This document shows positions 18,443 to 61,675 of a stretch of 64,000 nt of DNA, piece after piece. Position 1 is the first letter of the stretch. Each line of letters opens with the position of its first letter. A model generated the notes under the pieces. The model did no database searches. It was not told the origin of the DNA and saw nothing but the letters and a program-made list of their open reading frames with translations. Source of the DNA: an uncultured Candidatus Saccharibacteria bacterium (GTDB lineage: Bacteria > Patescibacteriota > Minisyncoccia > Phycocordibacterales > DATDWN01); the NCBI GenBank assembly GCA_964468795.1, contig CAYXWL010000001.1, positions 232,246 to 296,245 of the forward strand. The letters are read 5' to 3'. The position numbers and the translations under genes were made by a program.

Positions 18443-18575
18443 TGGAAGTGGTGTGCAGTCCAGATCTTTAGCATTGCGAGCGTTGGCCACCTCCTTGGTT
18501 TTCAACTTAGCCGCTCGCGTAGCGATCTGGTTACGGCTTGTGCCGTCATCCGTTCCCACTTAGGGAACGACTCAA

Positions 18576-18695
18576 TTAGTCCTCTGGCCTCTGCACATGC
18601 CTGGACCGCGATATGTTGGGAACTCCATGCAACATGAGTGCGCACTCCGCCTTTGTTACAGCGCCCTCCGCTAGAGGGTAACGTGCCGTCTTCAT
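18576..18695 (-). CDS. candidate 39-aa ORF (last gene of the GC-rich operon)
   Basis: Own translation MKTARYPLAEGAVTKAECALMLHGVPNISRSRHVQRPED, placed just after IR copy a. Below the track cutoff. Confidence 0.25.
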   Translation of the reverse strand: MKTARYPLAEGAVTKAECALMLHGVPNISRSRHVQRPED

Positions 18696-18703
18696 GGTGG
18701 AGC

Positions 18704-18745
18704 TCCCATCAAAAGTTTCAAATTATTTTAAAATCTTTGATGGGA
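18704..18745 (-). repeat. IR family copy a: TCCCATCAAA - AT-rich spacer - TTTGATGGGA
   Basis: 10-bp perfect inverted arms read directly; gene orientation is minus. Confidence 0.7.
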
Positions 18746-18885
18746 GGGCGAACAAATTTCGTTGCTCACCCATTGCACTGCGGTCTCGCCCTGCCTTATC
18801 AGCAAACGAAGTGTCTAGCTTCGTTGCTCGCTTAAGTCATTTCTGACATCAGCGAATTCGCGCAGGATCCCCGCTCAAGTTTGTG

Positions 18886-19386
18886 CTAACTCAGTCGACC
18901 CAATAAGGTTTGCCCTGTCGATACCAATCTGGCGTATGACCACCACTGACTGTAATCAGTGAGGATTTCCATACGCCAATGGCTGTCGACTCTGCCGGGA
19001 ATGGGCGGACACAATTCGATGAACGGAGATTGCTGATTGCGCAACTCCTCGTCCCTCGAAACGCGCCTCGCACACACCGGCAAAGTGACACCACTCGCAT
19101 CTTTGACGAATGCGACATTGGCACTGAGCCTCGACGAAAGTTTCCCACTGCATACTCGACCGTCTTTCTTTGGCGCAAGTAAGTTGAGAAAACTGTCGAT
19201 CGAGATAGGGCGATACCTCGTCAGGATCCGCTGCGCGTCGACGTATGTCCCGAGGTCCCAGAGAAGCAAATTGCTCTTCTCTTCGTTCCGGCGCACTTCC
19301 ATATTGCTAAAGTGACGCTCGAAAGTCTCACAAACCTCGAGGACGTTGACACTCACAAGGCGATCCCGAACGATGTAGTTTTCCAT
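18886..19386 (-). CDS. hypothetical protein (166 aa)
   Basis: Start set at MENYIVRDRL, preceded by AAAGGAGGG. GC-rich module. Confidence 0.55.
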   Translation of the reverse strand: MENYIVRDRLVSVNVLEVCETFERHFSNMEVRRNEEKSNLLLWDLGTYVDAQRILTRYRPISIDSFLNLLAPKKDGRVCSGKLSSRLSANVAFVKDASGVTLPVCARRVSRDEELRNQQSPFIELCPPIPGRVDSHWRMEILTDYSQWWSYARLVSTGQTLLGRLS

Positions 19387-19420
19387 GAGCCCTCCTTTGG
19401 GCAAAATACAGACTATTTTT

Positions 19421-19534
19421 AAAGAACTTTGGAACAATTTTGTTCCTTCAGAATACTTAACCTAGGTTAAACCCTCTGAAGGAAGTCCGAGGATATATGA
19501 CTTCCTCGGACGATACCGGGCTGACGCGCCGATA
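19421..19534 (-). promoter_or_regulatory. conserved structured leader, copy B (the homolog is at 26174..26288 on the plus strand)
   Basis: ~75 nt nearly identical to copy A: ATCGGCGCGTCAGCCCGgTATCGTCCGAGGAAGTCATATATCCTCGGACTTCCTTCAGAG. Covarying hairpins and GTTCTTT follow. Confidence 0.5.
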
Positions 19535-19544
19535 GACGTTATTG

Positions 19545-20093
19545 CTAGACTTCTCCCGAGAGATCGTTCGGATCTTCGTGGCCGTCCCACTCGGTGTCGA
19601 CATCTTCTCGCTTCCACTTGAGCCGATGGAGGACGTACTCGATCCTGCCCCTGGATTGTTTGGACAGCTTCCACTTCAACCAGCCGAACTCCTTCTCGAG
19701 CTGAGCAAGATTCTCGATCTGCCAACGCTTCAGGCAAGAAACGAGTCTTGGACTGAAGATGGATTTCGTCGAGATCTCCTCCCGAGGCCGATCTTTCAGC
19801 GAGTCGACGATGGCGTTGAAAGCCATCTCGAACTTCTGTTGCTCTACGGGCGGAGGCGGGAGTGGCTTCGGCGGTTTGCCGGCGTTCTTTCGTGCGGTGC
19901 GAACCTTACGAACTGCCTTGCGGGCAATCTGCATGATTCGCTCCTTCGTGACGGCAAACTCCTGGCCGATGTCGTTGTAGCTCATCCCTTGCGCGAGTAA
20001 GGTCAGGATTCTCTCCTCGCGGGGAGTCGTCCTCATGCGCTCGACTGGTGTGATCTCCGAAATGACAATGCCGAACAAAGTTTTTTTCTGCAA
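19545..20093 (-). CDS. sigma70 region-4-like HTH protein with an extra C-terminal domain
   Basis: TTG start after GGAG. TPREERILTLLAQGMSYNDIGQEFAVTKERIMQIARKAVRKV resembles sigma region 4. FSPRLVSCLKRWQIENLAQL weakly resembles an RpoA-CTD helix-hairpin-helix. Confidence 0.55.
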   Translation of the reverse strand: MQKKTLFGIVISEITPVERMRTTPREERILTLLAQGMSYNDIGQEFAVTKERIMQIARKAVRKVRTARKNAGKPPKPLPPPPVEQQKFEMAFNAIVDSLKDRPREEISTKSIFSPRLVSCLKRWQIENLAQLEKEFGWLKWKLSKQSRGRIEYVLHRLKWKREDVDTEWDGHEDPNDLSGEV

Positions 20094-20128
20094 TGTTTTT
20101 CTCCAAAGAACAAAGGGAAATTATTTTC

Positions 20129-20165
20129 CCGTCAAAACTCTGAAATAAATTCAAAACTTTGACGG
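20129..20165 (-). repeat. IR family copy f (variant arms CCGTCAAA / TTTGACGG)
   Basis: Preceded on the minus strand by hairpin GCCGAACttcgGTTCGGC. Followed by GGGAAAataaTTTCCC, GTTCTTT, GGAG and the start of 19545..20093. Confidence 0.6.
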
Positions 20166-20421
20166 AAGCCGAACCGAAGTTCGGCAAGTGTGATGGTAAA
20201 CTCGGAGTAGTTGTAGCCACTCTTTGCTCTTTAGGTAACTTGCGCCCTTAGCGAATACCCTGATTCCATCGCCAGACAGAATCACGGGAGAGTGGTTAAA
20301 GCTACAACTTCTAACCAACTACTCGCTCAATATGTATCACGGGCCATCACGCTCCACGACACGTCGCAACATTTTTCCTGCTCAAAAAATTCTACGATGT
20401 ACCGTGGAACTTTACAAAGAA

Positions 20422-20474
20422 CTTCTGTTTCGTCGTTTCCGACTCATCAGGTGAGACATACATCTCACGACAGG
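20422..20474 (-). ncRNA. hammerhead ribozyme, type III (HHR1)
   Basis: Minus strand: cCUGUC|GUGAGA-UGUAUG-UCUCAC-CUGAUGA-GUCG-GAAA-CGAC-GAAAC-AG. Full catalytic core, GUC cleavage site. Confidence 0.8.
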
Positions 20475-20558
20475 TGCCTTGGGTGCTAATCAAGACAAAT
20501 GATTTTTGGCCCTACTGCCCCTTGCGGGTACTCGGACCTTCTGTTGCCAAGCCGGTCA

Positions 20559-20939
20559 TTACTCCGGCTCCGTCTCCTCAAGCTGCTCTTCAGCAAGCTC
20601 GAGTTTTCTGCAGGCCTCTTCGAAGGCAACCAAGGCAGGAATGTTTCCCTTGCCCAGCTCTGGCAGCACTACGATTGGGAAGATTTCATCTCCCGTCTCG
20701 AGGTACAACCGAGAACCTTCTCCGTCGTGATGGGCGGCCCGCGAGAACTGGCGATGGCAGGAACGGCACTCGAAATAATCCAAGTCGTTCACTTCCACCG
20801 TGCAAGCTCCACAGGACGGACACCCATAACAAAGGAGTCGGCGTTGCGATTCTTCGTAGGCGAGCATTGGACACGAAGACAAGTGCTCGGACACTGACTC
20901 GTGGCAGTGTCGGCACTTTACCGTCAGTCGCAGTCTCAT
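20559..20939 (-). CDS. Cys-rich zinc-ribbon-like protein (126 aa)
   Basis: ATG at 20939, 5 nt after AGGAGG. CRHC..C..CYGCPSCGAC..CRSC motifs. Confidence 0.55.
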   Translation of the reverse strand: MRLRLTVKCRHCHESVSEHLSSCPMLAYEESQRRLLCYGCPSCGACTVEVNDLDYFECRSCHRQFSRAAHHDGEGSRLYLETGDEIFPIVVLPELGKGNIPALVAFEEACRKLELAEEQLEETEPE

Positions 20940-21315
20940 ACTCACCTCCTATTAAAGAACTTGAGACAAACCATTTGCCTCGTCATAATAATCAAAATCT
21001 TGATTTCTCTGACGAGACCCCGACTGATATTTTAGTCGGGATGTTGTGGTGGTGACTGTAAGCGATTGCAGTCACTTACAACCTTGAGATGTTCGGCGAA
21101 TTCCGAGCACCTCTTAGTGAATGTTTGGCTCCACCCGTATCCGAAATAGATACGGGAATCTGGCGCAAGCGCTGGGTGAGAATCTGCAACTCTCACGCTC
21201 TAAGCACCATTCACTCCCTCATGTATCATGGGCCACCACAGCTCCACGACACCTTGCACAACATTTTTTAGAAAAATTCTGTGCGAGATGTCGTGGATAG
21301 ATCAAAAGAACAGTT

Positions 21316-21366
21316 TCTGTTTCGTCCTTTCGGACTCTTCAGGGAGAATACACATTCTCCGACAGA
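21316..21366 (-). ncRNA. hammerhead ribozyme, type III (HHR2)
   Basis: Minus strand: CUGUC|GGAGAA-UGUGUA-UUCUCC-CUGAAGA-GUCC-GAAA-GGAC-GAAAC-AGA. Only the variable N7 differs from the other copies. Begins 6 nt after the stop codon of 21373..21651. Confidence 0.8.
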
Positions 21367-21372
21367 GCCGGA

Positions 21373-21651
21373 CTAACGTGCCGGCAACGAATAATTTTTT
21401 CTTCTCCACCTCCAAGGTTCATTTGAACCGACTCGGAACACGTAGCGGCCACACCGTGAGGTGTACCAGCCACGCGACTCGTCGGCCTTCCGCATTTTTG
21501 TGCGGAAGAAGTTACGAAGGCGACTCACATCACGCGACGTGAGCGGGCGGCCCTTGAGGACCTTTGCCCAGCTGAAGTACCCGTCTTCACGAGTGATCTC
21601 CAGCAACCGACCACCGAACCGATACTGGCCTCTTGACCACTCGCTTCCCAT
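21373..21651 (-). CDS. hypothetical basic protein (92 aa)
   Basis: ATG preceded by CTAGGAGGTATC. R/W-rich. Confidence 0.45.
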   Translation of the reverse strand: MGSEWSRGQYRFGGRLLEITREDGYFSWAKVLKGRPLTSRDVSRLRNFFRTKMRKADESRGWYTSRCGRYVFRVGSNEPWRWRRKNYSLPAR

Positions 21652-22032
21652 GATACCTCCTAGTTTTGAAAGAATAGTGGGTGTTTGCAGGATCCTCTCT
21701 GACTTTAATAGTCCGTGGCTTATCCACAGCTATTTCCTAGTGGTAACTTACCCACAAGGTCGTCTTTGATTAATCACCGCTAACATTGCACACCCGCGCA
21801 ACGCCAAGATGCCGGCAAGCATCTGGTGGATCGGAGCAAAGTTGCCTGGCCTCAGTTCTGTACGATTGCAGCCACTTTGGACTGCAATCTACCTCTCAGG
21901 CTGCCATGCCTTCGAAACACAGAAGTGTACCTTTGGCTCTGCTCCTAACGAAGATCCATCGGACTCCGGAATTTACCAAACTATTTGTCGAGCAAATTCC
22001 GAAATCCGTGAACCATTTTATTTTAAAGAACT

Positions 22033-22083
22033 TCTGTTTCGTCCTTTCGGACTCATCAGGCGAGACACTCATCTCACGACAGA
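22033..22083 (-). ncRNA. hammerhead ribozyme, type III (HHR3)
   Basis: Minus strand: UCUGUC|GUGAGA-UGAGUG-UCUCGC-CUGAUGA-GUCC-GAAA-GGAC-GAAAC-AGA. 5-bp open stem III. Confidence 0.85.
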
Positions 22084-22133
22084 CCAGGATGACGCTCTGG
22101 TAGACGTTTAGGAGATTCTGTTGCCGAGCTCTC

Positions 22134-22352
22134 CTAGTGCTCCGAGGCTGAGTCAGTGAGGATCAGCGTGGTAACCTCGGCGTAAAACGCCTCGACCTCT
22201 GGTCCACCGAACAGGGGTTTGTAAGACCCGTCGGAGTTCCGAGGCCAGATGCCTATGATGGCATCGAGCGTCGCCTTCGAGAGGTTGAATCTCTCGAAAG
22301 TCTTCCGCGCGAGTTCCTCCGAGATCCCCGTGATCTGATAGACTCTTTTCAT
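22134..22352 (-). CDS. hypothetical protein (72 aa)
   Basis: Start MKRVYQITGISEELARK after GAGGAGAGTGAC. Confidence 0.45.
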   Translation of the reverse strand: MKRVYQITGISEELARKTFERFNLSKATLDAIIGIWPRNSDGSYKPLFGGPEVEAFYAEVTTLILTDSASEH

Positions 22353-22388
22353 GTCACTCTCCTCAAAGAACTCGGAACGAACCATTCG

Positions 22389-22460
22389 TCCCATCAAAGA
22401 AATCAAGCTTTATTATTTTCTTGAAAGTAAACTTTCAAGTTGTTAATTGCTTTGATGGGA
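22389..22460 (-). repeat. IR family copy b: TCCCATCAAAG - 50-nt AT-rich spacer - CTTTGATGGGA
   Basis: 11-bp perfect arms. The spacer contains hairpin CTTGAAAgtttacTTTCAAG. Confidence 0.7.
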
Positions 22461-22566
22461 GGGCAAACGATGTTTTGTCGCTCACCCATGTTTACCCATG
22501 CTTTTACGCGGAAGGATTTTTCCACAACTTCGGTGCCTTGGCCGAAGGTTGACGCACCCAGTCGGA

Positions 22567-22743
22567 TTACTTCTTCCGATAGCCAGGCTTCCCGCCACAG
22601 GGAACGGAAACTGCTTTCACAGATTCCCGTTTTGCGGTTTTCAGCCTGCCGTCGTAGAAGTAACCAGCCCGAGCGAGGATCTTGTTGGCTTGCGCCTCCA
22701 AAGTCCTCTGATGGTTTGTGGCCACCATTGTGATTGTTGTCAT
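22567..22743 (-). CDS. hypothetical protein (58 aa)
   Basis: MTTITMVATNHQRTLEAQ.. preceded by GAGGAGGATC. First ORF after a ~370-nt leader. Confidence 0.4.
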   Translation of the reverse strand: MTTITMVATNHQRTLEAQANKILARAGYFYDGRLKTAKRESVKAVSVPCGGKPGYRKK

Positions 22744-23116
22744 GATCCTCCTCAGGATTGACTGGTTGTTAATGTAAAGAACATCGCGGGGGATGAGTTC
22801 GGGCTGGGGCCTAGTACACCGTGCAGCAACACGGGACTTCAGGCGAAAAGTGACCCCATATTGGTTTGCCTTACGCGAGATTCTTGCTCGCGCCTGGCTC
22901 CGCACACTTCCCTTGCTGAAGGGGAAGACTCCCTATGCGGTATTGAATGCCACCCTACACACCCCCACCTCAAAAGACTTGTATCTTCTGAAGCGGAGGA
23001 ATGTGTCCTCCATTTGTAAAGAAATGCACTTTGAAGTTAATTTTGATTGCGGGTCCGTGATATTTATCTGGACGGTTGCCATTCGCTAATAAAACTTAAC
23101 TTCAAGGTACACTGGT

Positions 23117-23145
23117 AGTATATACTAAACGTATATTTTTGTCAA
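23117..23145 (-). promoter_or_regulatory. sigma70-type promoter for the minus-strand GC-rich operon
   Basis: Minus strand TTGACA - 17 nt - TATACT. Confidence 0.55.
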
Positions 23146-23280
23146 GCAGTTTTGACATTTTCTTTTTATAAATCTAAAAATAGCTATAAATATAGCCATT
23201 ATATAGAATATAGATTTAATTTAACCTGACTAAACTAGTATTAAATTGACATACTAAATAAATAATTTTGTTATTTATAT

Positions 23281-23309
23281 TTGACAAATAAAATGAATGG
23301 GTATATACT
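23281..23309 (+). promoter_or_regulatory. sigma70-type promoter for the candidate ncRNA
   Basis: TTGACA (23281-86) - 17 nt - TATACT (23304-09). Confidence 0.6.
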
Positions 23310-23314
23310 TATAG

Positions 23315-23658
23315 GCAGACGAGTACCCAGGGTGTTCTTGGGGAAAGGAGGGTTCCATGCACGACTAGTGCGGGCTGGGGAACCGGGGGTTGTTAACCCC
23401 CGGTGTGGCCTCCAGTTTGGCTAGTCATAGATTGTGGAGGAAGCAAAAGTGGACGACTAGCACATAGGTGGTTCCAGTTCCATGCGTCCGACCACCAGAT
23501 AGTCAGAGGACGCGAGACAGATCATCTTCGTTCAGTTCAAGGTGGAAAATCCACCAGACAAAGAGAGAAGTGTGATTCCGTCAATCGTTCCCGGCGATTA
23601 GTCTTCGGGAACAACATGCCGTGGCGACAACTTACCGTCGCCACGGCATTTCTTATTT
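23315..23658 (+). ncRNA. candidate novel structured RNA (~340 nt) with its own promoter and intrinsic terminator
   Basis: GC-rich island between a consensus promoter and terminator ATGCCGTGGCGACaacttaccGTCGCCACGGCAT+TTTCTTATTT. Many helices, e.g. CCGGGGGUUguuAACCCCCGG and GGUGGAaaaUCCACC. Confidence 0.5.
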
Positions 23659-24393
23659 ATGATCAAAGATATATTTAATTAGGCTTTTGAGAGTGTCTGC
23701 AAACTCTTTGCTTTTTATTAAAATACCAGATGGTCTCTTTCCCAGAATAGATATTCTCACTTGGTCACCATAAACAGTAATATCGCTACTTAAAGGATAC
23801 TTCTCTGAATTTATTTTTAGCCTCTCTCCCATTTCATCTGATGGTTTATCTATATTTTTTGAAGTGTATATAGATCTAGATTTAATTCCTCTTGAAATCC
23901 TACGATCTTTTAGTCTACTTGTTTCTTTATCATCGAAAATATCCTTAACTAGATCTAAAGGATAAACTATATAAACAGGTTCATCAGGAAGTATTTTTAT
24001 AAAAGTATCATCATTTGAGCTAAGCACCCCTTCTTTACCATCAAAAAACTGAACCATTGGTTTTTCCCCTTGTTCTCTTTGGATACCTTTTAATTGTGGG
24101 ACGATAATATCTAGACCTTTTTTATTCTCTTCTAATAAGTGGATCTGTCTTTCTACGAACAAGCCAAGTTTTTCTGGAGGTTCAGCAATATAAAAAGTCT
24201 TTTTTCCAATATTTGATTCACTAACTAAACCCTTCTTCTGTAAAGATTCCAGGATCACGTATGCAGTAGGACGCTTTATCGTTGCTTTTTCGGCAATTTC
24301 AGTTACAAGAGCTTTATCAAAGGAAAGAAGAGCTAAATAAACTGCTGCTTCCTTATCACTAAGCCCAATATCTTTAAGGTATTTTTCAAACAT
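23653..24393 (-). CDS. TrmB-family transcriptional regulator
   Basis: N-terminal LGLSDKEAAVYLALLSFDKALVTEIAEKATIKRPTAYVILESLQKKGLV winged HTH. AT-rich like the host. Confidence 0.75.
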   Translation of the reverse strand: MFEKYLKDIGLSDKEAAVYLALLSFDKALVTEIAEKATIKRPTAYVILESLQKKGLVSESNIGKKTFYIAEPPEKLGLFVERQIHLLEENKKGLDIIVPQLKGIQREQGEKPMVQFFDGKEGVLSSNDDTFIKILPDEPVYIVYPLDLVKDIFDDKETSRLKDRRISRGIKSRSIYTSKNIDKPSDEMGERLKINSEKYPLSSDITVYGDQVRISILGKRPSGILIKSKEFADTLKSLIKYIFDHK

Positions 24394-24481
24394 ATGATTG
24401 TGATGATTTTGATTATTATAACATAGATTTTTTATTTTTTAAAAACAAAATCCGCCCTCCAACGGATTTCGTTGTGGGCGG

Positions 24482-24979
24482 TTAGGATTTACGATACTTC
24501 TCCTCCATTTCTCGGATAGCTTCCTCCAGAGTTCCGAGTCCCATTGCATGTCTTCTCTCATCAACATGCTCAGGATCCTCGATTTCTTTCGGAATAAACT
24601 TTCCGTCGACTTCAGTAAATTGTGTACCGAAGATTTGTGGACGATCCGTGTTCACTCTCACACGATCTGCGAGGTATGCCAGATCTTCTTTGATGATTTC
24701 CTCGAGAGGGCAATCCATCATAGAGTGTAGGCACAACTGTTGGAACGTGGGGTCATGGTCAGCGTGTTGAACGATGAGCCATGCAGAATGTGATGCTTCT
24801 CTGCCCACCATAGAAATCGTAGGCCATCTGTGATGTAACCAGATCCTCATCATCTTCACAGTGTTCTGAAAATCAACTGTCTCATCCCAGAAATCAGGAT
24901 CAAGAAGATTCTTGGAGCGCATTTCCTGGTCAACACGCCCCATCTCAAGTAGCTGTTCTGCCAACTCAGGGAAGAGCAT
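24482..24979 (-). CDS. hypothetical protein (165 aa)
   Basis: ATG preceded by AAAAAGGAGGTCAC. GC-rich. Ends at terminator CCGCCC..GGGCGG+T-run. Confidence 0.55.
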   Translation of the reverse strand: MLFPELAEQLLEMGRVDQEMRSKNLLDPDFWDETVDFQNTVKMMRIWLHHRWPTISMVGREASHSAWLIVQHADHDPTFQQLCLHSMMDCPLEEIIKEDLAYLADRVRVNTDRPQIFGTQFTEVDGKFIPKEIEDPEHVDERRHAMGLGTLEEAIREMEEKYRKS

Positions 24980-24994
24980 GTGACCTCCTTTTTC

Positions 24995-25222
24995 TCACAC
25001 GGGTTGAGTCCATTCTTTCAGAACTCGCACAGTCTTGACCCAGCTTTTCTGATAGACAAGCGGATCATCACTTGGAGCGTCCACCAGAGCCTTGGCAATC
25101 ACTTCTGCTTTGGCGTCGTCTTCAGCTTCAAATGGGATGAACTTCCAACCTCCGCTGGTTAGCCATCTACTATTCGAAGCTGTGTAACGCATTTCTGCAT
25201 ACCAGACTTCGTATTTCGACAT
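24995..25222 (-). CDS. hypothetical protein (75 aa)
   Basis: Start MSKYEVWYAEMRY after AAACGGAGGTTTT. The track ORF was trimmed. Confidence 0.45.
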   Translation of the reverse strand: MSKYEVWYAEMRYTASNSRWLTSGGWKFIPFEAEDDAKAEVIAKALVDAPSDDPLVYQKSWVKTVRVLKEWTQPV

Positions 25223-25238
25223 AAAACCTCCGTTTCTA

Positions 25239-25284
25239 AATATACCATTTTGTGCTTGACAAGTCAAGTAAAGTATGCTAGGAT
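25239..25284. promoter_or_regulatory. back-to-back divergent promoters with adjacent -35 boxes that together form a palindrome
   Basis: Plus: TTGACA(25256-61)-17-TAGGAT. Minus: TTGACT(25267-62)-17-TATATT. The -35 boxes lie in CTTGACaaGTCAAG. Confidence 0.5.
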
Positions 25285-25353
25285 AGAGGTAGTAATTCCT
25301 GTATGTATGTACAGGTCGCCCGAGAAGGGTAGGACAGAAAAAGGATGTGTCGT

Positions 25354-25662
25354 ATGACGCAGAATGCATATGATTTGAAGAAGATCGTGAACGGTCCGAG
25401 CAAGATGGACCTCATGCTGGCGATGTTCGACAGCAGCTTCCCGAATCACCGTTCAGTTGTCTTCAACTTTGAGAATGAGGGAGCGAGCAACTTCAAAGCT
25501 AGTGCTCCCTGTCACATCTCGATGGTTGAGAAGGAAGACGGTTCTGGCGAAAGCTTTAACTTCGAAGGAACTCTCTCCTACGACAACTTCCGGACAGGTA
25601 AGAGGGTGCGTGGTTGCTATAACACCATGCGCCGGACTGGCTTCTTCCACTTCGTGCAGTAG
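25354..25662 (+). CDS. hypothetical protein (102 aa)
   Basis: MTQNAYDLKKIVNG.. after AAAAAGGA. Confidence 0.45.
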   Translation: MTQNAYDLKKIVNGPSKMDLMLAMFDSSFPNHRSVVFNFENEGASNFKASAPCHISMVEKEDGSGESFNFEGTLSYDNFRTGKRVRGCYNTMRRTGFFHFVQ

Positions 25663-25690
25663 TTCTTCTGGGCGAGTTGTTAACTCGCCC

Positions 25691-25730
25691 TCCCATCAAA
25701 GTAATTAAATTTTTGATTTCTTTGATGGGA
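25691..25730 (+). repeat. IR family copy c
   Basis: GGGCGAGTTgttAACTCGCCC hairpin, then TCCCATCAAAG-18 nt-CTTTGATGGGA. Confidence 0.7.
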
Positions 25731-25782
25731 CAATTTGGTCCCGATTTGTTCATTTCAATTTTCAGTGCCCAAAGGAGGGCCC

Positions 25783-26154
25783 ATGATCAACGAACGTGGT
25801 GAGTTTATTCGCGAGACGGCAGCTCCTTCTACCAAGGAAGTCACCACGAAGAATTACATGGTCAACGTGGTCACTTCATCGCTCAAGGATATTCTCAGTG
25901 GACACAACCTGATCAGCGACATGAACCAGGTTATCCTTCTCCAGTTCGGACCTTGCTCGGAAGAGGAAGGTGACGCTCTGGCGGATCGGATCAACGCGTG
26001 GGTTCGTGGGGGTGAAGGTCGTGGTCCTGCTGAGGCATTCCGGATTCTGGGACTGCACCAGAAGACGGGAGATGTGTGGGCGTCTTGCGACCCGATCCCG
26101 ACGGCTGGCATCTCGGAACTTCTCCAAAAGTTCCAGGTGAAAACCACTGTTTGA
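25783..26154 (+). CDS. hypothetical protein (123 aa)
   Basis: MINERGEFIRE.. after AAAGGAGGGCCC. Confidence 0.5.
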   Translation: MINERGEFIRETAAPSTKEVTTKNYMVNVVTSSLKDILSGHNLISDMNQVILLQFGPCSEEEGDALADRINAWVRGGEGRGPAEAFRILGLHQKTGDVWASCDPIPTAGISELLQKFQVKTTV

Positions 26155-26173
26155 TCAACATAAAGATCCGTCC

Positions 26174-26288
26174 ATCGGCGCGTCAGCCCGATATCGTCCG
26201 AGGAAGTCATATTATCCTCGGACTTCCTTCAGAGAGTTCAACTTTGTTTGAAAATTCTGAAGGAACGAATAGTTCGTTCTGGTTCTTT
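26174..26288 (+). promoter_or_regulatory. conserved structured leader, copy A
   Basis: ATCGGCGCGTCAGCCCGATATCGTCCGAGGAAGTCATATTATCCTCGGACTTCCTTCAGAG ... TTCTGAAGGAACGAAtagTTCGTTCtgGTTCTTT, then GGGGAGG and ATG at 26302. Confidence 0.5.
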
Positions 26289-26301
26289 GGGGAGGTACAC
26301 C

Positions 26302-26520
26302 ATGTTCGTCAGCAATACCACGATTTTTCACTGCCCGATGTTCGGGTGCGGTCACGAAAACGAACGTTCGAACCGCACGAAGCCGGAAGACATCGTTTGC
26401 GAAGGATGTCACGCACCTTGGTGGCCGATGGAACTCGGTTTCATTGGAAATGATCCGAAAGAAAACATCGAGTTCGCACGGACTCATGATCGGAAAGGAA
26501 ATCTTCGTGAGCTGGCGTAA
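26302..26520 (+). CDS. zinc-ribbon-like small protein (72 aa)
   Basis: MFVSNTTIFHCPMFGCGHENE..CEGCHAPWW. Confidence 0.45.
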   Translation: MFVSNTTIFHCPMFGCGHENERSNRTKPEDIVCEGCHAPWWPMELGFIGNDPKENIEFARTHDRKGNLRELA

Positions 26521-26550
26521 TTCTTCTGGGCGAACGTAATTTGTTCGCCC

Positions 26551-47100: not shown

Positions 47101-47226
47101 ATGTTTATTTATTATACAACAAACTTTCATAATTGGATGCAGTTCTAGGCGGACAAAAAAATACCGCGAGCCTTATATAGATAAGGTGAGCGGTATTTTT
47201 TGAAGTCCAACAACGAAATGCGTCAA

Positions 47227-48609
47227 TTATGAAAGTTTGTAAATTTTACCACGTTCGGGGTATATAGCATCCACCTCAAGCTCATCCCTAAGCCTCTGAG
47301 TTAGATATGTTGAAGATTTTGGTTCGCCCATGACCACGAACACTTTTTTGACTTTCTTTGCAGTATTGGAAACCATGTCTACTATTCCGTTCGAATCCTT
47401 GTGGGAAGAATAGCCAGATATCATTTCTATCCTAGCTTTTACCGGAACAATTTCTCCATTGATTTCAATTTCTCTTGGCTTTTCCTGTATTCTCCTTCCC
47501 AGCGTTCCTAGAGCCTGATAGCCCATGAGCAAAATCGTGCTTTTTGGATCCGGCAGGTACCTTATTTCATGCGCTACTACCCTTCCACCAGAGGACATGC
47601 CCGAACCTGCAATGATGATTTTTGGGTTTGAAATATTTTCTATCTCGTTCGACTCTCTTGAACCATGCGTAATAGTAAGTTTTGGAAAATTGAAGATATT
47701 GTCACCGCCTTTTATCTCATCATTTACGCCCTTATTAAAATCTTTTGTTTTTTTAGCATAAACTTCTGTGACCTTGAGCCCCAAGGGAGAGTCCAGAAAA
47801 ACCGGCACGGAAGGGATCTTGCCGTCTTCTACCATATTGTTGAGTTCATACAGAATAACTTGCGTTCTTTCTATCGAAAAAGCTGGTATTACCAGAGCTC
47901 CTCTTGAAGCGATAGTCTCTTTTACAACGCTTATAAACCTTTTGTCTCTAACATCTTTTGGCTCATGATTCCTGTCCCCATATACGCTATCTACCACCAA
48001 ATAATCCGCATCGGTTATTTCCTCTGTTTGCTTGAGCAAAGGAGACGGCGAGTTTCCAGAGTCGCCAGTAAAAACTATTTTTCTGCCGTCGTATGAAAAC
48101 TCATACATTGATGAGCCTAGAATATGCCCTGCGTCTTTTAAGTAAACTGAAAGATCATCTGTAATTTTTGTATTTTCGTTATATGGGATAGTTCTCCATA
48201 GGGCGAAGGCAGTATTAGCATCGTTGGCATCATATAGAGGCGGAATCTTGAAACCGTCTTCTATCTCTTTTTCCTTGGACTTCATATCCATAACCTTTAT
48301 GGCATCCTCTATCATCAAAATGGCTAGGTCTTTTGTCTCCGGAGTTGAATATATGATTCCTCGAAAGCCGTCCTTTACCAGCTTGCCCACTCTGCCTATA
48401 TGATCCATGTGAGCATGAGTGATAAACAGAAAATCAATTGTTTTCGGATCATACGGGAAAGGCTTTGCGTTTTCTTCTTCTGCCGTTGGAGTTCCTTGAA
48501 CCAGTCCGCAATCTACCAAAAACCTTTCATCCTGAGTCTCCACCAAAAAGTTTGCCCCTGTCACAGTCCCTACTCCGCTCCAAAATGTCACTTCAAGTTT
48601 TTTTGCCAT
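47227..48609 (-). CDS. MBL-fold / beta-CASP family hydrolase (RNase J/CPSF-like)
   Basis: FITHAHMDHIGR (HxHxDH) plus downstream D/H motifs. The start may be 48630. Confidence 0.7.
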   Translation of the reverse strand: MAKKLEVTFWSGVGTVTGANFLVETQDERFLVDCGLVQGTPTAEEENAKPFPYDPKTIDFLFITHAHMDHIGRVGKLVKDGFRGIIYSTPETKDLAILMIEDAIKVMDMKSKEKEIEDGFKIPPLYDANDANTAFALWRTIPYNENTKITDDLSVYLKDAGHILGSSMYEFSYDGRKIVFTGDSGNSPSPLLKQTEEITDADYLVVDSVYGDRNHEPKDVRDKRFISVVKETIASRGALVIPAFSIERTQVILYELNNMVEDGKIPSVPVFLDSPLGLKVTEVYAKKTKDFNKGVNDEIKGGDNIFNFPKLTITHGSRESNEIENISNPKIIIAGSGMSSGGRVVAHEIRYLPDPKSTILLMGYQALGTLGRRIQEKPREIEINGEIVPVKARIEMISGYSSHKDSNGIVDMVSNTAKKVKKVFVVMGEPKSSTYLTQRLRDELEVDAIYPERGKIYKLS

Positions 48610-48611
48610 TT

Positions 48612-49010
48612 TTATTTTATTAATTTCCAAGAGTATAGTGATGCCAAAAGTCCTCCCAAAAGATCCATGGATAAATCACCCATTGTGTCTTTGTAGTAAA
48701 GCCAGCCATCAGACAAAGTGGTAATGCCAAAGTGCAGTTCGAATATTTCCCACAATATTCCGATAAGGAGCGTCCCAAGAACACCTATTATAATGACTTT
48801 TTTCTGCGAATTTTCAATTTCTGAATAGAGACAAGATACCAGCCATATTGTACCCATGCCCACGCAGGCCCCTCCCAAAAGATGCATAGGTTTATCTAAG
48901 CCCGATACAGTCCAATAGTAATAGAATTTATTGTTTATATAATCGGCTACTCCTATGAAAGCTAAAATAGCAAAGGCCCGAAAAAATAGATTTGAGTTTC
49001 TATATTGCAT
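48612..49010 (-). CDS. small integral membrane protein
   Basis: 132 aa, 4 TM. Confidence 0.5.
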   Translation of the reverse strand: MQYRNSNLFFRAFAILAFIGVADYINNKFYYYWTVSGLDKPMHLLGGACVGMGTIWLVSCLYSEIENSQKKVIIIGVLGTLLIGILWEIFELHFGITTLSDGWLYYKDTMGDLSMDLLGGLLASLYSWKLIK

Positions 49011-49943: not shown

Positions 49944-50140
49944 AAAGTTTAGTTAGATAGTTAATAAGTTTAATAGTTGATGAGTTTGATAGTTTATAAG
50001 TGAAGGATATCACCATTTTAGAAGTTTTCAAATATGGATGAAGTTCAAGGCGAAATGAAAAAATGAGAGAAGCCTTACAAGTAGTAAGGTGACGAACATT
50101 TTTGAAATTTCAACGCAAAAATTCGCCAGTTTTGAAAGTT

Positions 50141-50908
50141 CTACTTAGTAAGTATGATAGGGTCCATCTCAGTAATAGCAATAGTATGTTCGCAATGAGC
50201 AGCATTTGAACCGTCTGCTGTTTTGTATGTATATCCATCTTTTGCTAAAACTATTTTGCTTGTGCCAAGGGTAATCATGGGTTCTATAGCAATAACCATG
50301 CCAGGCTTCAAAACTTCTCCTGTGCCTTTTCTGCCTTGATTTGGTACAAATGGATCCTCGTGAACTTTGTAACCAACCCCATGCCCTGCCAAACCCTCGC
50401 ACAAGCCATATCCAAGAGGCTTTATAAATGACTCGATTGCGTATCCTATATCACCTACCCGCGCCCCGCCCCTTGCTACTTTTATTCCCAAAGCCAATGC
50501 TTCCTTGCAATGCTCTATCATCTTCCTGTCTTCTTCTAAAATATTTCCAACCCCGACTGTTATCGCACTATCAGTTATCATGCCCTTATGAACAAGTCCC
50601 AAATCCAAAGTTACGACGTCGCCATCTTGTAAAATAAGTGGGTCCTCGTTTGGTATGCCGTGAACTATTTCATTGTTTACTGAAACACATAGGCTTGCCG
50701 GATAAGGCCTCTTTGCCCCTCTAGGTGTATAGTTCAAAAAAGCAGCCTTGTCTCCGCCTTCCTTTATGAGCTCTGACGCAAAGTCATCGAGTTCCTTGGT
50801 AGAAATTCCAGGTGCTACTTTCTTTGCAATTTCCTGCAAAATAAAGGCGTGGCGCTTTCCACCCTCTTTTAATATTTCTATTTCCTCCTGAGTCTTAATA
50901 TTTATCAT
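50141..50908 (-). CDS. map: type I methionine aminopeptidase
   Basis: 255 aa. Metal ligands in the DLG..D..H..E..E pattern (VVTLDLG, AHCEHT). Confidence 0.9.
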   Translation of the reverse strand: MINIKTQEEIEILKEGGKRHAFILQEIAKKVAPGISTKELDDFASELIKEGGDKAAFLNYTPRGAKRPYPASLCVSVNNEIVHGIPNEDPLILQDGDVVTLDLGLVHKGMITDSAITVGVGNILEEDRKMIEHCKEALALGIKVARGGARVGDIGYAIESFIKPLGYGLCEGLAGHGVGYKVHEDPFVPNQGRKGTGEVLKPGMVIAIEPMITLGTSKIVLAKDGYTYKTADGSNAAHCEHTIAITEMDPIILTK

Positions 50909-55649: not shown

Positions 55650-55717
55650 TGTTATTAAAAAAGCTTTTTCAAGCTCAAACTACACTATCAAAACTCGTGT
55701 ATAAAGTCAAACAAAAT

Positions 55718-55745
55718 GCCCGGGTCTCCTTTCGGAGACCCGGGC
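55718..55745 (-). terminator. strong intrinsic terminator inside the spc operon
   Basis: Minus strand GCCCGGGTCTCCgaaaGGAGACCCGGGC + ATTTTGTTT. Confidence 0.7.
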
Positions 55746-55755
55746 ACAGACAGAA

Positions 55756-56412
55756 CTACAAGCCCACACGAAGTACGAGTCTTGCTTCTTCGAGCTTGTG
55801 CCGAGCAGGACCATTCCCAAACTTCTCGACCTGCTCCTCGAGGTTCATGCCTGTGTTAAATGACATGACGAATGGGACATTCAGACGGGAATCCCGTTCG
55901 ACAATGTACCGGAAGGCATTGTCGAAGGTCTCGCGAGAGATCTGATTCGCACTAATCTTGGTGATCTTAAAAGCAACTTCCGCCAAGATATTACGAAGCT
56001 CATAGTCTGTTCCTGTAAATGCAGGCACCAGATCCTTGCGCTTGGAAAAAGTGAAGGTCTGATCTACCCACACTTGCGGTCGCGTTGTTTTGTATTTTGC
56101 GACCATTCCGGGTTCAGACAAATTATCCTGAATATACCGGTAAGCATCAAGAGCTTCGACAAATGCTGAGTAGAGGGTAATTGCTGTAACCCCCTTCACC
56201 TCATTCATAACGAAGAGTGGATTATGCTCGCAAGCATATCGGAACATGCGCTTCTCGAAAAGATTTTCACGCCATCTTCGAGGAAGACGACGCAAATACC
56301 TGATCCCTTTCGGAACCGCCCACATCACGGAAAGGAACAGCCCCGTGCTCCAGAAGAGCAGACCGAAGTAAATAACAAGCCAGCCAGCCCTGTACAAGTT
56401 GTAAAGGTCCAT
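55756..56412 (-). CDS. hypothetical membrane-anchored protein (218 aa) in a GC-richer cassette
   Basis: N-terminal TM pair (WLVIYFGLLFWSTGLFLSVMWAV). ATG after GATGGAGGCAGT. No motif recognised. Confidence 0.6.
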   Translation of the reverse strand: MDLYNLYRAGWLVIYFGLLFWSTGLFLSVMWAVPKGIRYLRRLPRRWRENLFEKRMFRYACEHNPLFVMNEVKGVTAITLYSAFVEALDAYRYIQDNLSEPGMVAKYKTTRPQVWVDQTFTFSKRKDLVPAFTGTDYELRNILAEVAFKITKISANQISRETFDNAFRYIVERDSRLNVPFVMSFNTGMNLEEQVEKFGNGPARHKLEEARLVLRVGL

Positions 56413-56490
56413 ACTGCCTCCATCTGTACCAATCCTAGTCCTACGCTCCTCAAAATGAGGAGTGTGGCTGGTAGTACAGATTTGTAATAT

Positions 56491-56520
56491 ATTATATCAC
56501 TATTTGTACTGTAGTGTCAA
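56491..56520 (-). promoter_or_regulatory. consensus sigma70 promoter of the cassette
   Basis: Minus strand TTGACA-18 nt-TATAAT, followed by a ~80-nt hairpin-containing leader. Confidence 0.55.
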
Positions 56521-56700
56521 TATATCCCTGATAAAGAAAAAACTCCATTTATGGAGTTTTTTCTTTACACGAGTTTGTCGTTCTGAGGATTTTTGCTAGA
56601 GTTCGAGGTGGGAGTGCGGATTGCGACCAAGCTGTACAAGTAGTATTGCGCGGGAGCAAACGCAAGCGACAAACAAAGAAATCGAGCAAAAAGACCAGAA

Positions 56701-59871: not shown

Positions 59872-60210
59872 TTATTTCTTATCTGCTGTAGTTTTAGCAG
59901 CCTGTGCAGCAGAAATTTCAGCCTCTTTCTTCTTCTGCTCTAGCTCCTTCTGCATCTTTCCTCCGTGCTTTATGAATTTCTTTGTTGGAGAAAATTCGCC
60001 TAGTCTGTGGCCTACCATATCTTCTGCCACCAAAACTTCTAGGTGAGTCTTTCCGTTGTGCACTCCGAATGTAAAGCCGATCATCTCTGGAGAGATAACA
60101 CATGCTCTTGACCATGTCTTAATAACCCCTGTCTCTAGAGGCTTCTTTCCTTCAATTTTCTTGAGCAATCGCTCGTCCACGTATGGACCTTTTTTTGATG
60201 ATCGTGTCAT
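59872..60210 (-). CDS. rpsS: 30S ribosomal protein S19 (extended C-terminus)
   Basis: [24 protein letters not shown]. Confidence 0.9.
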
Positions 60211-60400
60211 TTTTGTCTATTTTAATTCCCTCGCCATTTGGCAAGAAGAAAACCACTCAGTAAATTTAAATCGCGTGGTACTGACTTACTTAATAATTCA
60301 AAAAGAATGTAAATACCTCAGTGGCGTCTATACTATACAAAATGCTTAAATATGTCAACAACAAAGCTAAAGGGCGGAATACTCCGCCCTTTCCACCTCT

Positions 60401-60646
60401 CTAGGTGGGATCATAAATCCTTACAAGTGCAGTACACCGCGTACAATGCACCTCGCCTAGCCTAGTTACTGGATCTACATTTACTATCTTGTGCTCTTGA
60501 GGAGTAGACGAGCATACGGGACAGTTCTTTCCATCAATCGGAATGGCCTGCGTACCGAACTCTGTTCTCCATATGGCAACAAACCCAGCTTCACCAACTG
60601 CTCTTGCAAGAGCTTCGAGCATCCTGCCTCTCTTGGTTTCTTCCAT
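60401..60646 (-). CDS. small zinc-ribbon-like protein (81 aa) in a GC-richer cassette between rplB and rpsS
   Basis: CPVC..(22 aa)..CTRC. ATG after AATCGGAGGAATC. Flanked by terminators (60749-60797 and 60369-60392) and promoter-like TTGACT-17-TTAAAT. Confidence 0.55.
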   Translation of the reverse strand: MEETKRGRMLEALARAVGEAGFVAIWRTEFGTQAIPIDGKNCPVCSSTPQEHKIVNVDPVTRLGEVHCTRCTALVRIYDPT

Positions 60647-60832
60647 GATTCCTCCGATTATTAATTTAATTCTATTATGGAAATAAAGTCAAAGGCCATC
60701 TTGCATTCGTAAAACTTCCCAATTTGGGTGAGATACGACGGGAGAAAACAAAAAATGCACCGAGGTGTACATATAGTACATTGAGGTGCATTTTTGGTTT
60801 TTGGACCGAGTAGGTCGCCAAATTTGGAAGTT

Positions 60833-61675
60833 TTACTTGTTCTTTCCAACTCGTCGTCGTGACACAATAAATTTGTTTGAATACTTCTTTGGAGTTCGTG
60901 TCTTCTGTCCCTTTCCTGTTGGCTTTCCGTAAACTGAGATTGCTCGTCTTCGTCCTCTTCCTTGTCGTCCTTCTCCTCCTCCGTGTGGGTGATCCACTGG
61001 GTTCTGAGCTGTTCCCTTTACTGTAGGCCTGATACCCAACCATCGTGATCGTCCGGCCTTTCCTAGGTTTACTAGTCGGTTCTCATCGTTTGATACATCA
61101 CCGATAGATGCCCACGCAGTATCTTTTACCTTTCGAACTTCTGTTGAAGGGAGCTTTAGGTCAACATATCCGTTGTCCTTTGAAATAACTTCAACATAGT
61201 TTCCGGCAGATCGAGCAAGCTTTGCTCCACCGTTCGGTTTTAGTTCAACGTTGTATACAAATGTACCAATGTTGATGTTTTTTAGAGGAAGTCTGTTTCC
61301 AGGCTTCTGCTCTGCATTCTCACCTGTAACTAGAACATCTCCAACTCGTACTGCCTTTGGAAGAAGAACATATCGCTTCTCTCCGTCGTGATACTGAGCA
61401 AGACCGATAAATCCTGTTCTGTTTGGATCATACTCAACTGTCTTGATAGTGTAAGGAATATTTATTTTGTCGTATCGAAAATCAACAGCTCGGAAAAGTC
61501 TCTTGTGGCCACCTCCCTTATGTCGCGTTGTGATGATGCCTGAGTTGTTTCGGCCCATGTCTCGCTTGTAGCCATGTGTCAAAGACTTTACAGGTTCTGA
61601 TGCAGTAATGAAGTTGCCATATGAGATGGTCGTCATTCCTCGTCGTGATTTTGATGTTGGTCGGTATCGCTTCAT
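60833..61675 (-). CDS. rplB: 50S ribosomal protein L2
   Basis: 280 aa. ..RHKGGGHKR.. and ..NPVDHPHGGGEGR.. Confidence 0.9.
   Translation of the reverse strand: MKRYRPTSKSRRGMTTISYGNFITASEPVKSLTHGYKRDMGRNNSGIITTRHKGGGHKRLFRAVDFRYDKINIPYTIKTVEYDPNRTGFIGLAQYHDGEKRYVLLPKAVRVGDVLVTGENAEQKPGNRLPLKNINIGTFVYNVELKPNGGAKLARSAGNYVEVISKDNGYVDLKLPSTEVRKVKDTAWASIGDVSNDENRLVNLGKAGRSRWLGIRPTVKGTAQNPVDHPHGGGEGRQGRGRRRAISVYGKPTGKGQKTRTPKKYSNKFIVSRRRVGKNK

Follow-up and report, generated by a model that had tools for sequence, protein, structure and literature searches.

A hairpin element and a small zinc-ribbon gene in a variable rplB-rpsS spacer of a candidate-phyla S10-spc cluster

In most bacteria rplB and rpsS adjoin, and the S10-spc cluster that contains them is usually treated as the most rigid bacterial gene order. 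Several described systems nevertheless offer points of comparison for DNA inserted at such a place. Phage morons (Hendrix-type) are small genes with their own promoter and terminator between genes that are usually adjacent, and chromosomal gene-flow hotspots or islets have conserved flanks, contents that vary by genome, and empty sites. Short interspersed repeats with a comparable organization include REP/BIME (Enterobacteria), Correia/NEMIS (Neisseria), RPE (Rickettsia), RUP/BOX (Streptococcus) and miniature inverted-repeat transposable elements (MITEs). Among small zinc ribbons, the closest known systems are Lar of the Rac prophage (PF14354, TIGR03655), ECs_2282-type proteins, and the ribbons of NrdR (N-terminal), TFIIB/Brf1, Elf1 and TFIIS. 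Here, we analyzed a 622-nt gap between rplB and rpsS in a 64,000-nt stretch of contig CAYXWL010000001.1 from an uncultured bacterium (the window); the gap contains a copy of a long-hairpin palindromic element, which we call PE, and a gene for an 81-aa zinc-ribbon protein. We think it probable that the gap is a clade-wide operon breakpoint with host-owned signals on both sides and a turnover slot between them, occupied in this lineage by the PE copy and a horizontally acquired accessory gene.

The gap spans 60211-60832, and the open reading frame (ORF) coordinates bear out the spacing of 622 bp given in a first-pass annotation of the window. The two genes and the layers between them are arranged as follows (labels beginning with L designate loci from relatives or from homolog-bearing contigs).

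60833-61675, minus strand: rplB, ribosomal protein L2, 280 aa (ORF list; Ribosomal_L2_N and Ribosomal_L2_C of Pfam on the identical gene in L001)
60709-60836, minus strand: first layer, a PE copy of 128 nt (class of ~125-130 nt; inverted repeat, fold, covariance model) that begins at the rplB stop codon
60377-60709, minus strand: second layer, a lineage-specific segment of ~333 bp (blastn of the gap against the gaps of relatives)
60211-60376, minus strand: third layer, the rpsS promoter and leader, conserved across the closest relatives
59872-60210, minus strand: rpsS, ribosomal protein S19, 112 aa (ORF list; Pfam Ribosomal_S19 on the identical gene in L001)

Against 80 Patescibacteria genomes, the L2 protein showed identities of 67-88%, the best of them (82-88%) to Paceibacteria/Minisyncoccia genomes near Ca. 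Zambryskibacteria. When the whole gap was compared by blastn with the gaps of 54 related genomes that have both genes on the fetched locus, homologous positions were limited to 1-123 and 457-622 of the gap. The intervening DNA, 60377-60709, had no counterpart in any of these 54 gaps; it contains a promoter-like site, a ribosome-binding site, the 81-aa ORF and most of a terminator. The spacer is therefore likely to be a composite of three layers rather than a single inserted unit.

The variability of the junction extends through the clade. Among the 54 genomes the rplB-to-rpsS distance ranged from 52 to 6901 nt (median 1251) and fell below 150 nt in six only, while at least 11 further genomes had no rpsS within 7 kb. 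The ORFs carried in these gaps amounted to 104 singletons and a few families, and no homolog of the 81-aa protein was present at the junction in any of the 54. Empty sites were seen as well: the 238-nt gap of L026 consists of terminator, promoter and leader, and L020 and L018 are also without an ORF. In the sub-clade L040-L094 (~72-75% L2 identity), the gap holds rplJ (Pfam Ribosomal_L10, E = 1e-17) together with a 185-aa protein, a 230-aa mechanosensitive-channel-like protein and variable others, and in four of these genomes an ORF recognized by eye is probably rplL; in this lineage, a second ribosomal operon interrupts the S10 cluster. In the closest relatives, the slot repeatedly holds proteins of 90-130 aa that end in ...AWEYYEK and form a weakly conserved family (L019:~8443-8778, L021:~7916-8194, and L022, L024, L025 and L028), with four apparent tandem copies in L022, as judged by the shared C-terminal motif. 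This family has no Pfam counterpart, and only some pairs of its members reached a phmmer E value of ~1e-3. We also tried, and rejected, a relationship between the 81-aa protein and the first ORFs in the gaps of L019 and L028, whose organization is similar (hhalign probability 1.1% and 0.1%, respectively).

Collectively, these comparisons place a clade-wide split of the operon at rplB/rpsS. The upstream transcription unit is rplC-rplD-rplW-rplB, with rplB last, and the downstream unit is rpsS-rplV-rpsC-rplP-..., with rpsS first; genes come and go in the DNA that separates the rplB terminator from the rpsS promoter, which makes this spacer a hotspot of gene turnover. Under the mechanism that we propose, the rplC-rplB and rpsS-... 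units would be expressed separately, the former ending in a terminator after rplB and the latter starting, in the closest relatives, from a promoter and ~113-nt leader of its own. The slot left between terminator and promoter could then stay empty, take up mostly unrelated small ORFs, or accommodate several kb including rplJ-rplL; in the window it would hold the 128-nt PE and a ~333-bp, probably monocistronic zinc-ribbon gene segment.

A second junction of the window has a similar layout. In the rplE-rpsN gap (55650-56700), rplE is followed by a PE-like hairpin, a terminator AAAAAACTCCATaaATGGAGTTTTTT, a TTGACA-17-GATATAAT promoter, GGAGG, a 218-aa ORF (55756-56412, no Pfam family) and a terminator, and then by a TTGACT-17-TAGTGT promoter and rpsN. 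The rplE-rpsN distance is 20-1349 nt in 30 relatives, and a 26%-identical homolog of the 218-aa protein lies in the same slot at L019:12688-13266. We found nothing relevant in the literature on ribosomal-operon insertions or on palindromic or MITE elements in Patescibacteria, a result that is weak evidence given its incomplete coverage.

The third layer contains the signals that we assign to rpsS.

60330-60358, minus strand: rpsS promoter, TTGACA-17-TAGTAT (scan, 10 of 12 matches; clade form TTGACAT...TTTTGTATAGTAT)
60211-60323, minus strand: rpsS 5' leader, ~113 nt (alignments; blastn)

Both features could be aligned, and are conserved, in the 12 closest relatives. The promoter is near-invariant among them except in L020, where it lies further upstream, and the leader has blastn identities of 78-83% to L021, L026, L027, L029 and L020. 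An invariant hairpin at ~60243-60281 on the minus strand, (U)ACCAC-loop-GUGGU followed by UUUU(U/C)NUUUUG, is present in 13 of 13 aligned genomes (the L019-L037 equivalents), with a 12-nt insertion in the loop in the window, L020 and L029. All five pairs of its stem are invariant, so that covariation gives no support either way; the hairpin is a candidate attenuator or ribosomal-protein binding site. A subset of leaders, including those of the window, L021, L026 and L027, carries ...CTTGCCAAATGGCG(A/G)GGGAATTAAAAT..., and a small palindrome, CTTGCCAAATGGCGA, occupies 60231-60245. Promoter and leader are conserved whatever lies upstream of them, including in L026, whose gap has no ORF. In relatives with cargo, a GC-rich hairpin stands 0-25 nt before the rpsS promoter, and its stem sequence is different in each.

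The first-pass annotation had read the gap as a discrete mobile cassette between rplB and rpsS, bracketed by 15-16-mers that might be a decayed target-site duplication or an att core. Both 15-16-mers are indeed present at the gap ends (60231-60245 and 60815-60830, TCGCCAAATTTGGAAG / TCGCCATTTGGCAAG), and none of the 54 relatives has the ORF at the junction, as expected of such a cassette. The best local alignment of the two ends, CTT-CCAAATTTGGCGA / CTTGCCAAA--TGGCGA, has a score of 9, however. When equally spaced pairs of 60-mers were drawn at random from the window, 18.9% of them scored as high, as did 13.1% of shuffled controls; the repeat therefore lacks significance. Moreover, its two copies belong to independently conserved features that lie outside the unique segment 60377-60709, which they do not border. 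The left copy (60815-60830) is the outer arm of PE, an element found at many other loci. The right copy, which is the leader palindrome described above, is ancestral leader sequence, because the leader is conserved in a relative without an insert (L026), and it also occurs in relatives with different cargo (L021, L027 and L029). The 81-aa gene is the only ORF called in the 622 bp, so the gap encodes no integrase or other recombinase. We therefore rejected a target-site duplication or att core and regard the mobile-cassette explanation as very improbable. What survives of it is a lineage-specific, self-contained gene: neither the rplB terminator nor the rpsS promoter with its leader, although counted into the cassette, belongs to the insert. 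The promoter and its leader, put at 120 nt in that annotation, are present and conserved in the closest relatives, and the hairpin named as terminator after rplB (60797->60749) exists as a component of the 128-nt PE. Two findings had also been named there as jointly telling against a cassette, insignificance of the 15-mers and conservation of the ORF at this site across the lineage; only the first was obtained.

We next consider the layer that is specific to this lineage, which has the following features.

60663-60692, minus strand: sigma-70-like promoter candidate, TTGACT-18-TAAATT or TTGACT-17-TTAAAT (consensus scan, 9 of 12 matches)
60651-60655, minus strand: Shine-Dalgarno sequence GGAGG, four nt before the ATG (sequence)
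60401-60646, minus strand: gene P0001 for the 81-aa protein, with CPVC and CTRC (ORF list)
60369-60392, minus strand: intrinsic-terminator-like hairpin AAAGGGCGGAgtatTCCGCCCTTT (scan and fold)

The ORF with its GGAGG, CPVC and CTRC and the terminator-like hairpin behind it (60392->60369) are thus where the first-pass annotation had placed them. The hairpin has a 10-bp stem with six GC pairs and a 4-nt loop, and ends 10 nt upstream of the rpsS -35 hexamer; together with the inner hairpin of PE it shows the GC-rich stem-loop and U-run predicted for intrinsic terminators, in this case with an interrupted U-run. Shine-Dalgarno sequences are scarce in the window, a 4-mer match preceding 12% of 80 gene-like ORFs and GGAGG 6%. 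Cases of GGAGG are confined to a GC-rich island at ~18.8-27.1 kb, the insert ORF 55756-56412 and the 81-aa ORF. The ORF had also been called GC-richer, which applies mildly only: its GC content is 48.4%, compared with a gene mean of 41.6% ± 6.1 (z = 1.1).

The structural model of the 81-aa protein has an N-terminal helix (residues 3-20) and a C-terminal C4 zinc ribbon (C42, C45, C68 and C71) that ends the protein (VRIYDPT), and is confident across the ribbon. Two CxxC knuckles, ~20-25 residues apart, sit at beta-hairpin turns of a three-stranded antiparallel sheet, and the best fold matches are transcription-machinery ribbons. The exact protein occurs in 14 metagenome contigs from several samples, always in the order rplB-ORF-rpsS, and no close homolog was found in another context. 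Eight retrieved copies match the window apart from one rpsS substitution and a few differences inside rplB. A word-index search of 5.8 billion proteins with the single sequence returned one cluster, the 81-aa protein itself. Exhaustive HMMER searching of 1.84 billion representatives yielded 24 proteins at E ≤ 1e-3; the best single-sequence E value was 5e-7, and the proteins found were unrelated small proteins with the same C-terminal motif. A profile search enlarged the family to ~47 sequences. Aligned small members share the C-terminal module CPxCGxxPxxHEVxNxDxxxxDGDVxCxxCGxYVRxYDAG, in several cases with a G-F-T/V-P segment before it; the four cysteines are invariant, and P49, G64, V75, R76 and D79 nearly so.

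One might suspect that the frame is open by chance and that the spacer, long and structured, is non-coding, given that the ORF is small, belongs to no Pfam family and formed a single cluster in the word-index search. Significant independent homologs with four invariant cysteines and a conserved C-terminal motif, a fold prediction that is confident over the ribbon, and a strong GGAGG at a workable distance from the ATG make this explanation extremely improbable. On these sequence features, the ORF is a real, self-contained, lineage-specific gene.

No curated family in Pfam, PHROGs, NCBIfam or PADLOC claims the protein; there were sub-threshold matches only, to generic zinc ribbons or to Lar. 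Among solved structures, no sequence match was found below E = 0.05, and tblastn of two family members against GenBank phages (INPHARED) gave no match. The sub-threshold matches raise the alternative of a phage-derived Lar-type anti-restriction factor that the host or a cryptic element has retained. Matches to Pfam Lar_restr_allev occur in 23 of 47 members (best E = 1.2e-4), one member (P0032) matches TIGR03655 anti_R_Lar at E = 0.005, members lie in phage contigs, and one is beside an AbiE toxin-antitoxin pair. The window protein, however, scores 16.6 bits against a PF14354 cut-off of 28.6, which none of the 47 was shown to reach, and P0032 scores 17.1 bits against 39.6 for TIGR03655. In addition, the generic families Zn_ribbon_3, Zn_Ribbon_1 and DZR matched equally well, PADLOC gave no match, and restriction-modification genes are not consistently nearby. 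A Lar-type function is quite unlikely.

Family members are scattered over unrelated contexts. Three IMG/VR viral contigs carry members, as found by a scan with the trimmed C-terminal alignment, and in the phage-like contigs L014, L098 and L103 members adjoin replication, recombination and nuclease genes. Elsewhere they lie beside cysS (L108), the AbiE pair (L110), a polysaccharide deacetylase gene in one assembly (L015-L017) or a PD-(D/E)XK nuclease gene (L010-L013), and two positions are near translation genes, after fusA (L009) and beside rpmG, tsf and rpsB (L099). The family is a rare, unannotated zinc-ribbon family common to candidate-phyla genomes and uncultivated phages. As an observation apart, the IMG/VR phage contig L103 encodes at 341-2389 a 682-aa RecA-like protein with what appears by eye to be an intein- or homing-endonuclease-like insert, and an HNH-like and an IS605 OrfB-like ORF, likewise recognized by eye, are near this gene.

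The translation-adjacent positions suggest a further alternative, that the protein is a lineage-specific translation-associated factor, either a ribosome-binding ribbon or a regulator of ribosomal-protein expression, whose position between rplB and rpsS reflects co-regulation. Besides that position and those of the homologs in L009 and L099, small ribosomal proteins are often zinc ribbons, the family profile has faint bL32 matches (E = 0.28-0.97), and the best fold matches come from the transcription machinery. The bL32 matches are not significant, however, and most members are in phage-like or unrelated contexts. The gene is missing from the junction in 54 of 54 relatives, and has its own promoter-like site, a terminator and a Shine-Dalgarno type unlike that of ribosomal genes. 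By our estimate, three of ~12 contexts is within expectation for small, gene-dense genomes. We consider such a factor quite unlikely. With low confidence, we would assign to this small protein a zinc-dependent binding function, with nucleic acid or another protein as its target, and, again with low confidence, would regard it as accessory rather than part of the core ribosome.

Returning to an accessory gene acquired into a host-owned slot, signs of foreign origin are the rare GGAGG, the members in phage-like and IMG/VR contigs, and the other members at unrelated cellular positions. Horizontal transfer is the probable source of the gene, with a phage-related pool as its likeliest origin, and it would probably have arrived by illegitimate insertion or by homologous exchange through the conserved ribosomal-protein flanks. 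Site-specific integration is unlikely, because the flanking repeat is not significant and the gap encodes no integrase.

Several points weigh against this view and should be set beside it. GC content at third codon positions (GC3) is typical of the genome in the 81-aa ORF (z = 0.16), so compositional support for a recent transfer is weak and comes mainly from GGAGG. The eight copies are too nearly identical for selection on the ORF to be measured within the lineage. The U-tract of the terminator of the gene is interrupted (AGCTTTGTTG). As for its TTGACT promoter-like site, which is also listed in the first-pass annotation, the consensus match stands against a high background, with seven sites in 2 kb versus 3.1 ± 1.9 expected, and matches of this kind carry little weight by themselves. 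The promoter and both terminators were predicted from consensus or fold, and we infer their activity, as we do the acquisition route and the function of the protein; the anatomy of the gap, the pattern of conservation, the family membership of the protein and the insignificance of the flanking repeat are shown by the data. Lastly, three of ~12 family contexts (here, L009 and L099) adjoin translation genes, so that some functional connection to translation is conceivable.

The first layer is a member of a repeated element. The features of PE at this site, and its other copies in the window, are as follows.

60749-60797, minus strand: inner hairpin of the rplB-site copy, AAAAAUGCACC...GGUGCAUUUUUUGUUUU (predicted fold; A-tract before, U-tract after)
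50019-50144, minus strand: PE copy that begins at the map stop codon (covariance model)
47118-47241, minus strand: PE copy within the 3' end of gene 47227-48630 (covariance model)
56591-56691, minus strand: partial PE copy, a degenerate variant, directly after rplE (covariance model)

At the rplB site, the 5' arm of PE, GTAAAACTTCCAAATTTGG, overlaps the rplB stop codon and the 3' arm is CCAAATTGGGAAGTTTTAC; the terminal inverted repeat of 19 nt (60709-60727 / 60818-60836) is 95% complementary. The 186-nt stretch 60647-60832, in which the element lies, folds at -51.4 kcal/mol (z = -4.9 versus shuffles). Sequence and fold give the inner hairpin (60797->60749) a stem of 11 bp, after which comes UUUUUUGUUUU; the terminator scanner skipped this hairpin, its loop being longer than 8 nt. 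Inner hairpin and U-tract are a probable intrinsic terminator of the rplB unit, and may terminate or stabilize the rplB transcript.

The terminal sequences recur across relatives as (T)AAAACTTCCAAATTTGG ... CCAAATTnTGAAAGTTTT(A), with the end sequence TAAAACTTCCAAATTTGG. In 13 aligned copies the ends are conserved, and the interiors differ yet stay paired, with compensatory double changes in 20 of 30 consensus pairs. A covariance model gave the rplB-site copy 122 bits (E = 1e-22) and detected three full copies and one partial copy in the window, ~3.5 in total, all co-oriented with the upstream gene. In the window and relatives together it found 26 copies, which are confined to the closest relatives (L2 identity ≥ 78%). 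No Rfam 15 family matched 60150-60900 at gathering score, the best E value at a permissive threshold being 1.1; the Rfam matches in the window, a tmRNA and two tRNAs, are all outside this interval.

PE shows a marked association with stop codons. For 19 of the 26 copies, the start lies no more than a few nt from the stop codon of a gene in the same orientation; the genes concerned are tuf (six genomes), rpsJ, rplB, rpsC, rplX, rpsN, rplE and map. A 467-aa metallo-beta-lactamase-like gene (47227-48630) even takes its terminal codons (K-L-S) and its stop from the copy at 47118-47241. An exact 18-mer from the 5' arm was present in 101 metagenome stretches; at 56 of 82 sites read, a co-oriented ORF ends no more than 30 nt upstream, most commonly (20 sites) with its stop codon formed by the first three bases of PE, and the upstream genes belong to at least 41 unrelated families.

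At the rplB stop itself, PE is present in the window, L019, L028 and L032, with three interior subtypes (window/L019, L028 and L032), and absent from L020, L021, L024, L026, L027 and L029, which have a plain terminator, CAAAACCGCCGAAAGGCGGTTTTG, instead. PE thus has multiple copies at non-homologous places, terminal inverted repeats, and presence/absence polymorphism at orthologous sites, as do interspersed elements; no direct repeat was evident in the comparison of filled and empty rplB stop sites. The window copy is 89% identical to the same-site copy of L019 (blastn). Since these two share a PE subtype and have different cargo, cargo turnover is more recent than PE insertion. Cargo is not meaningfully more frequent in genomes with PE at the rplB stop (four of four) than in those without it there (nine of 12), and an association of the two was rejected. 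Separately, the rpsS leader of L018, the closest relative, carries a diverged PE-like hairpin (L018:8033-8158, 38 bits) near the position of the GCCAAATGGC palindrome, so PE can land in the rpsS leader too.

Taken together, PE could be a mobile, structured module of 3' untranslated regions that resides at stop codons, and rplB/rpsS and rplE/rpsN could be dedicated exchange slots. We hold this joint reading to be unlikely. If it were true, PE would found a novel class of elements with specificity for, or selective retention at, stop codons of strongly expressed genes, in a single orientation, and would terminate, stabilize or process mRNAs in Paceibacteria. The slots would put zinc ribbons and 'AWEYY' proteins under ribosome-linked expression, for example for modulation of translation or for anti-phage functions, and the 81-aa protein, instead of being random cargo, would represent an allele at a hypervariable locus with functional coherence.

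The S10-spc cluster is a widely used phylogenetic and binning anchor for metagenome-assembled genomes. Throughout one Paceibacteria clade it is not rigid, being broken at rplB/rpsS and, more mildly, at rplE/rpsN; both breakpoints behave like hotspots of gene turnover and matter for operon models, for checks on contig chimeras and for gene gain in tiny candidate-phyla genomes. PE, for its part, is an undescribed interspersed hairpin and a candidate regulatory or mobile RNA/DNA element of the candidate phyla radiation.

We also noted features of the window that lie apart from this junction. Among 80 gene-like ORFs, many are preceded by a TGGTATAAT-like -10 box whose end lies ~7 nt from the ATG, a pattern that suggests widespread leaderless mRNAs in this genome. 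The GC-rich island at ~18500-27800 has 48-57% GC, compared with ~40% elsewhere, and contains many unannotated small ORFs, several with GGAGG. Near it are a 443-aa ORF on the plus strand (29426-30757) that by eye resembles large serine recombinases, a GC-rich ORF (30849-31784, minus strand) and a tRNA (33795-33883, minus strand). The island is probably an integrated mobile element or a prophage remnant.

How, then, does the locus compare with the systems named at the outset? The 81-aa gene resembles a phage moron in its anatomy, as judged from the predicted promoter and terminator, in a translation signal, GGAGG, that is unlike that of its neighbors, and in having relatives in phage contigs. 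Its GC3 does not deviate, however, and the setting is a chromosomal ribosomal-protein operon and not a prophage, with a flanking promoter and terminator that are host-owned and conserved in the closest relatives. The junction shares with gene-flow hotspots and islets the conserved flanks, the genome-specific contents and the empty sites. It differs from them in lying inside the S10-spc cluster, in carrying mostly one or two very small ORFs, and in the lack of an integrase or tRNA at the site.

Lar and ECs_2282-type proteins are likewise small (55-80 aa), phage-associated C4 zinc ribbons with sub-threshold similarity to the family, whereas the family falls below their cut-offs and has at its extreme C-terminus a motif of its own, HEVxN...DGDVxC..CG.YVR.YD, which is not in their models. 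PE, at ~125 nt with terminal inverted repeats, is akin to the REP, Correia and MITE-type repeats in occupying many unrelated intergenic sites and gene 3' ends, where it would be co-transcribed, in differing in presence between genomes and in its ability to supply last codons and a stop. By contrast with them, it has no Rfam relation, its interior is wholly paired with abundant compensatory change, it strictly prefers to start at a stop codon in the orientation of the gene, no target-site duplication was seen, and it is found in a narrow Paceibacteria clade. Relative to these systems, the novel aspects, which do not overturn current knowledge, are a hotspot inside S10-spc, a stop-abutting, co-oriented and covarying hairpin element, and an unannotated zinc-ribbon family.

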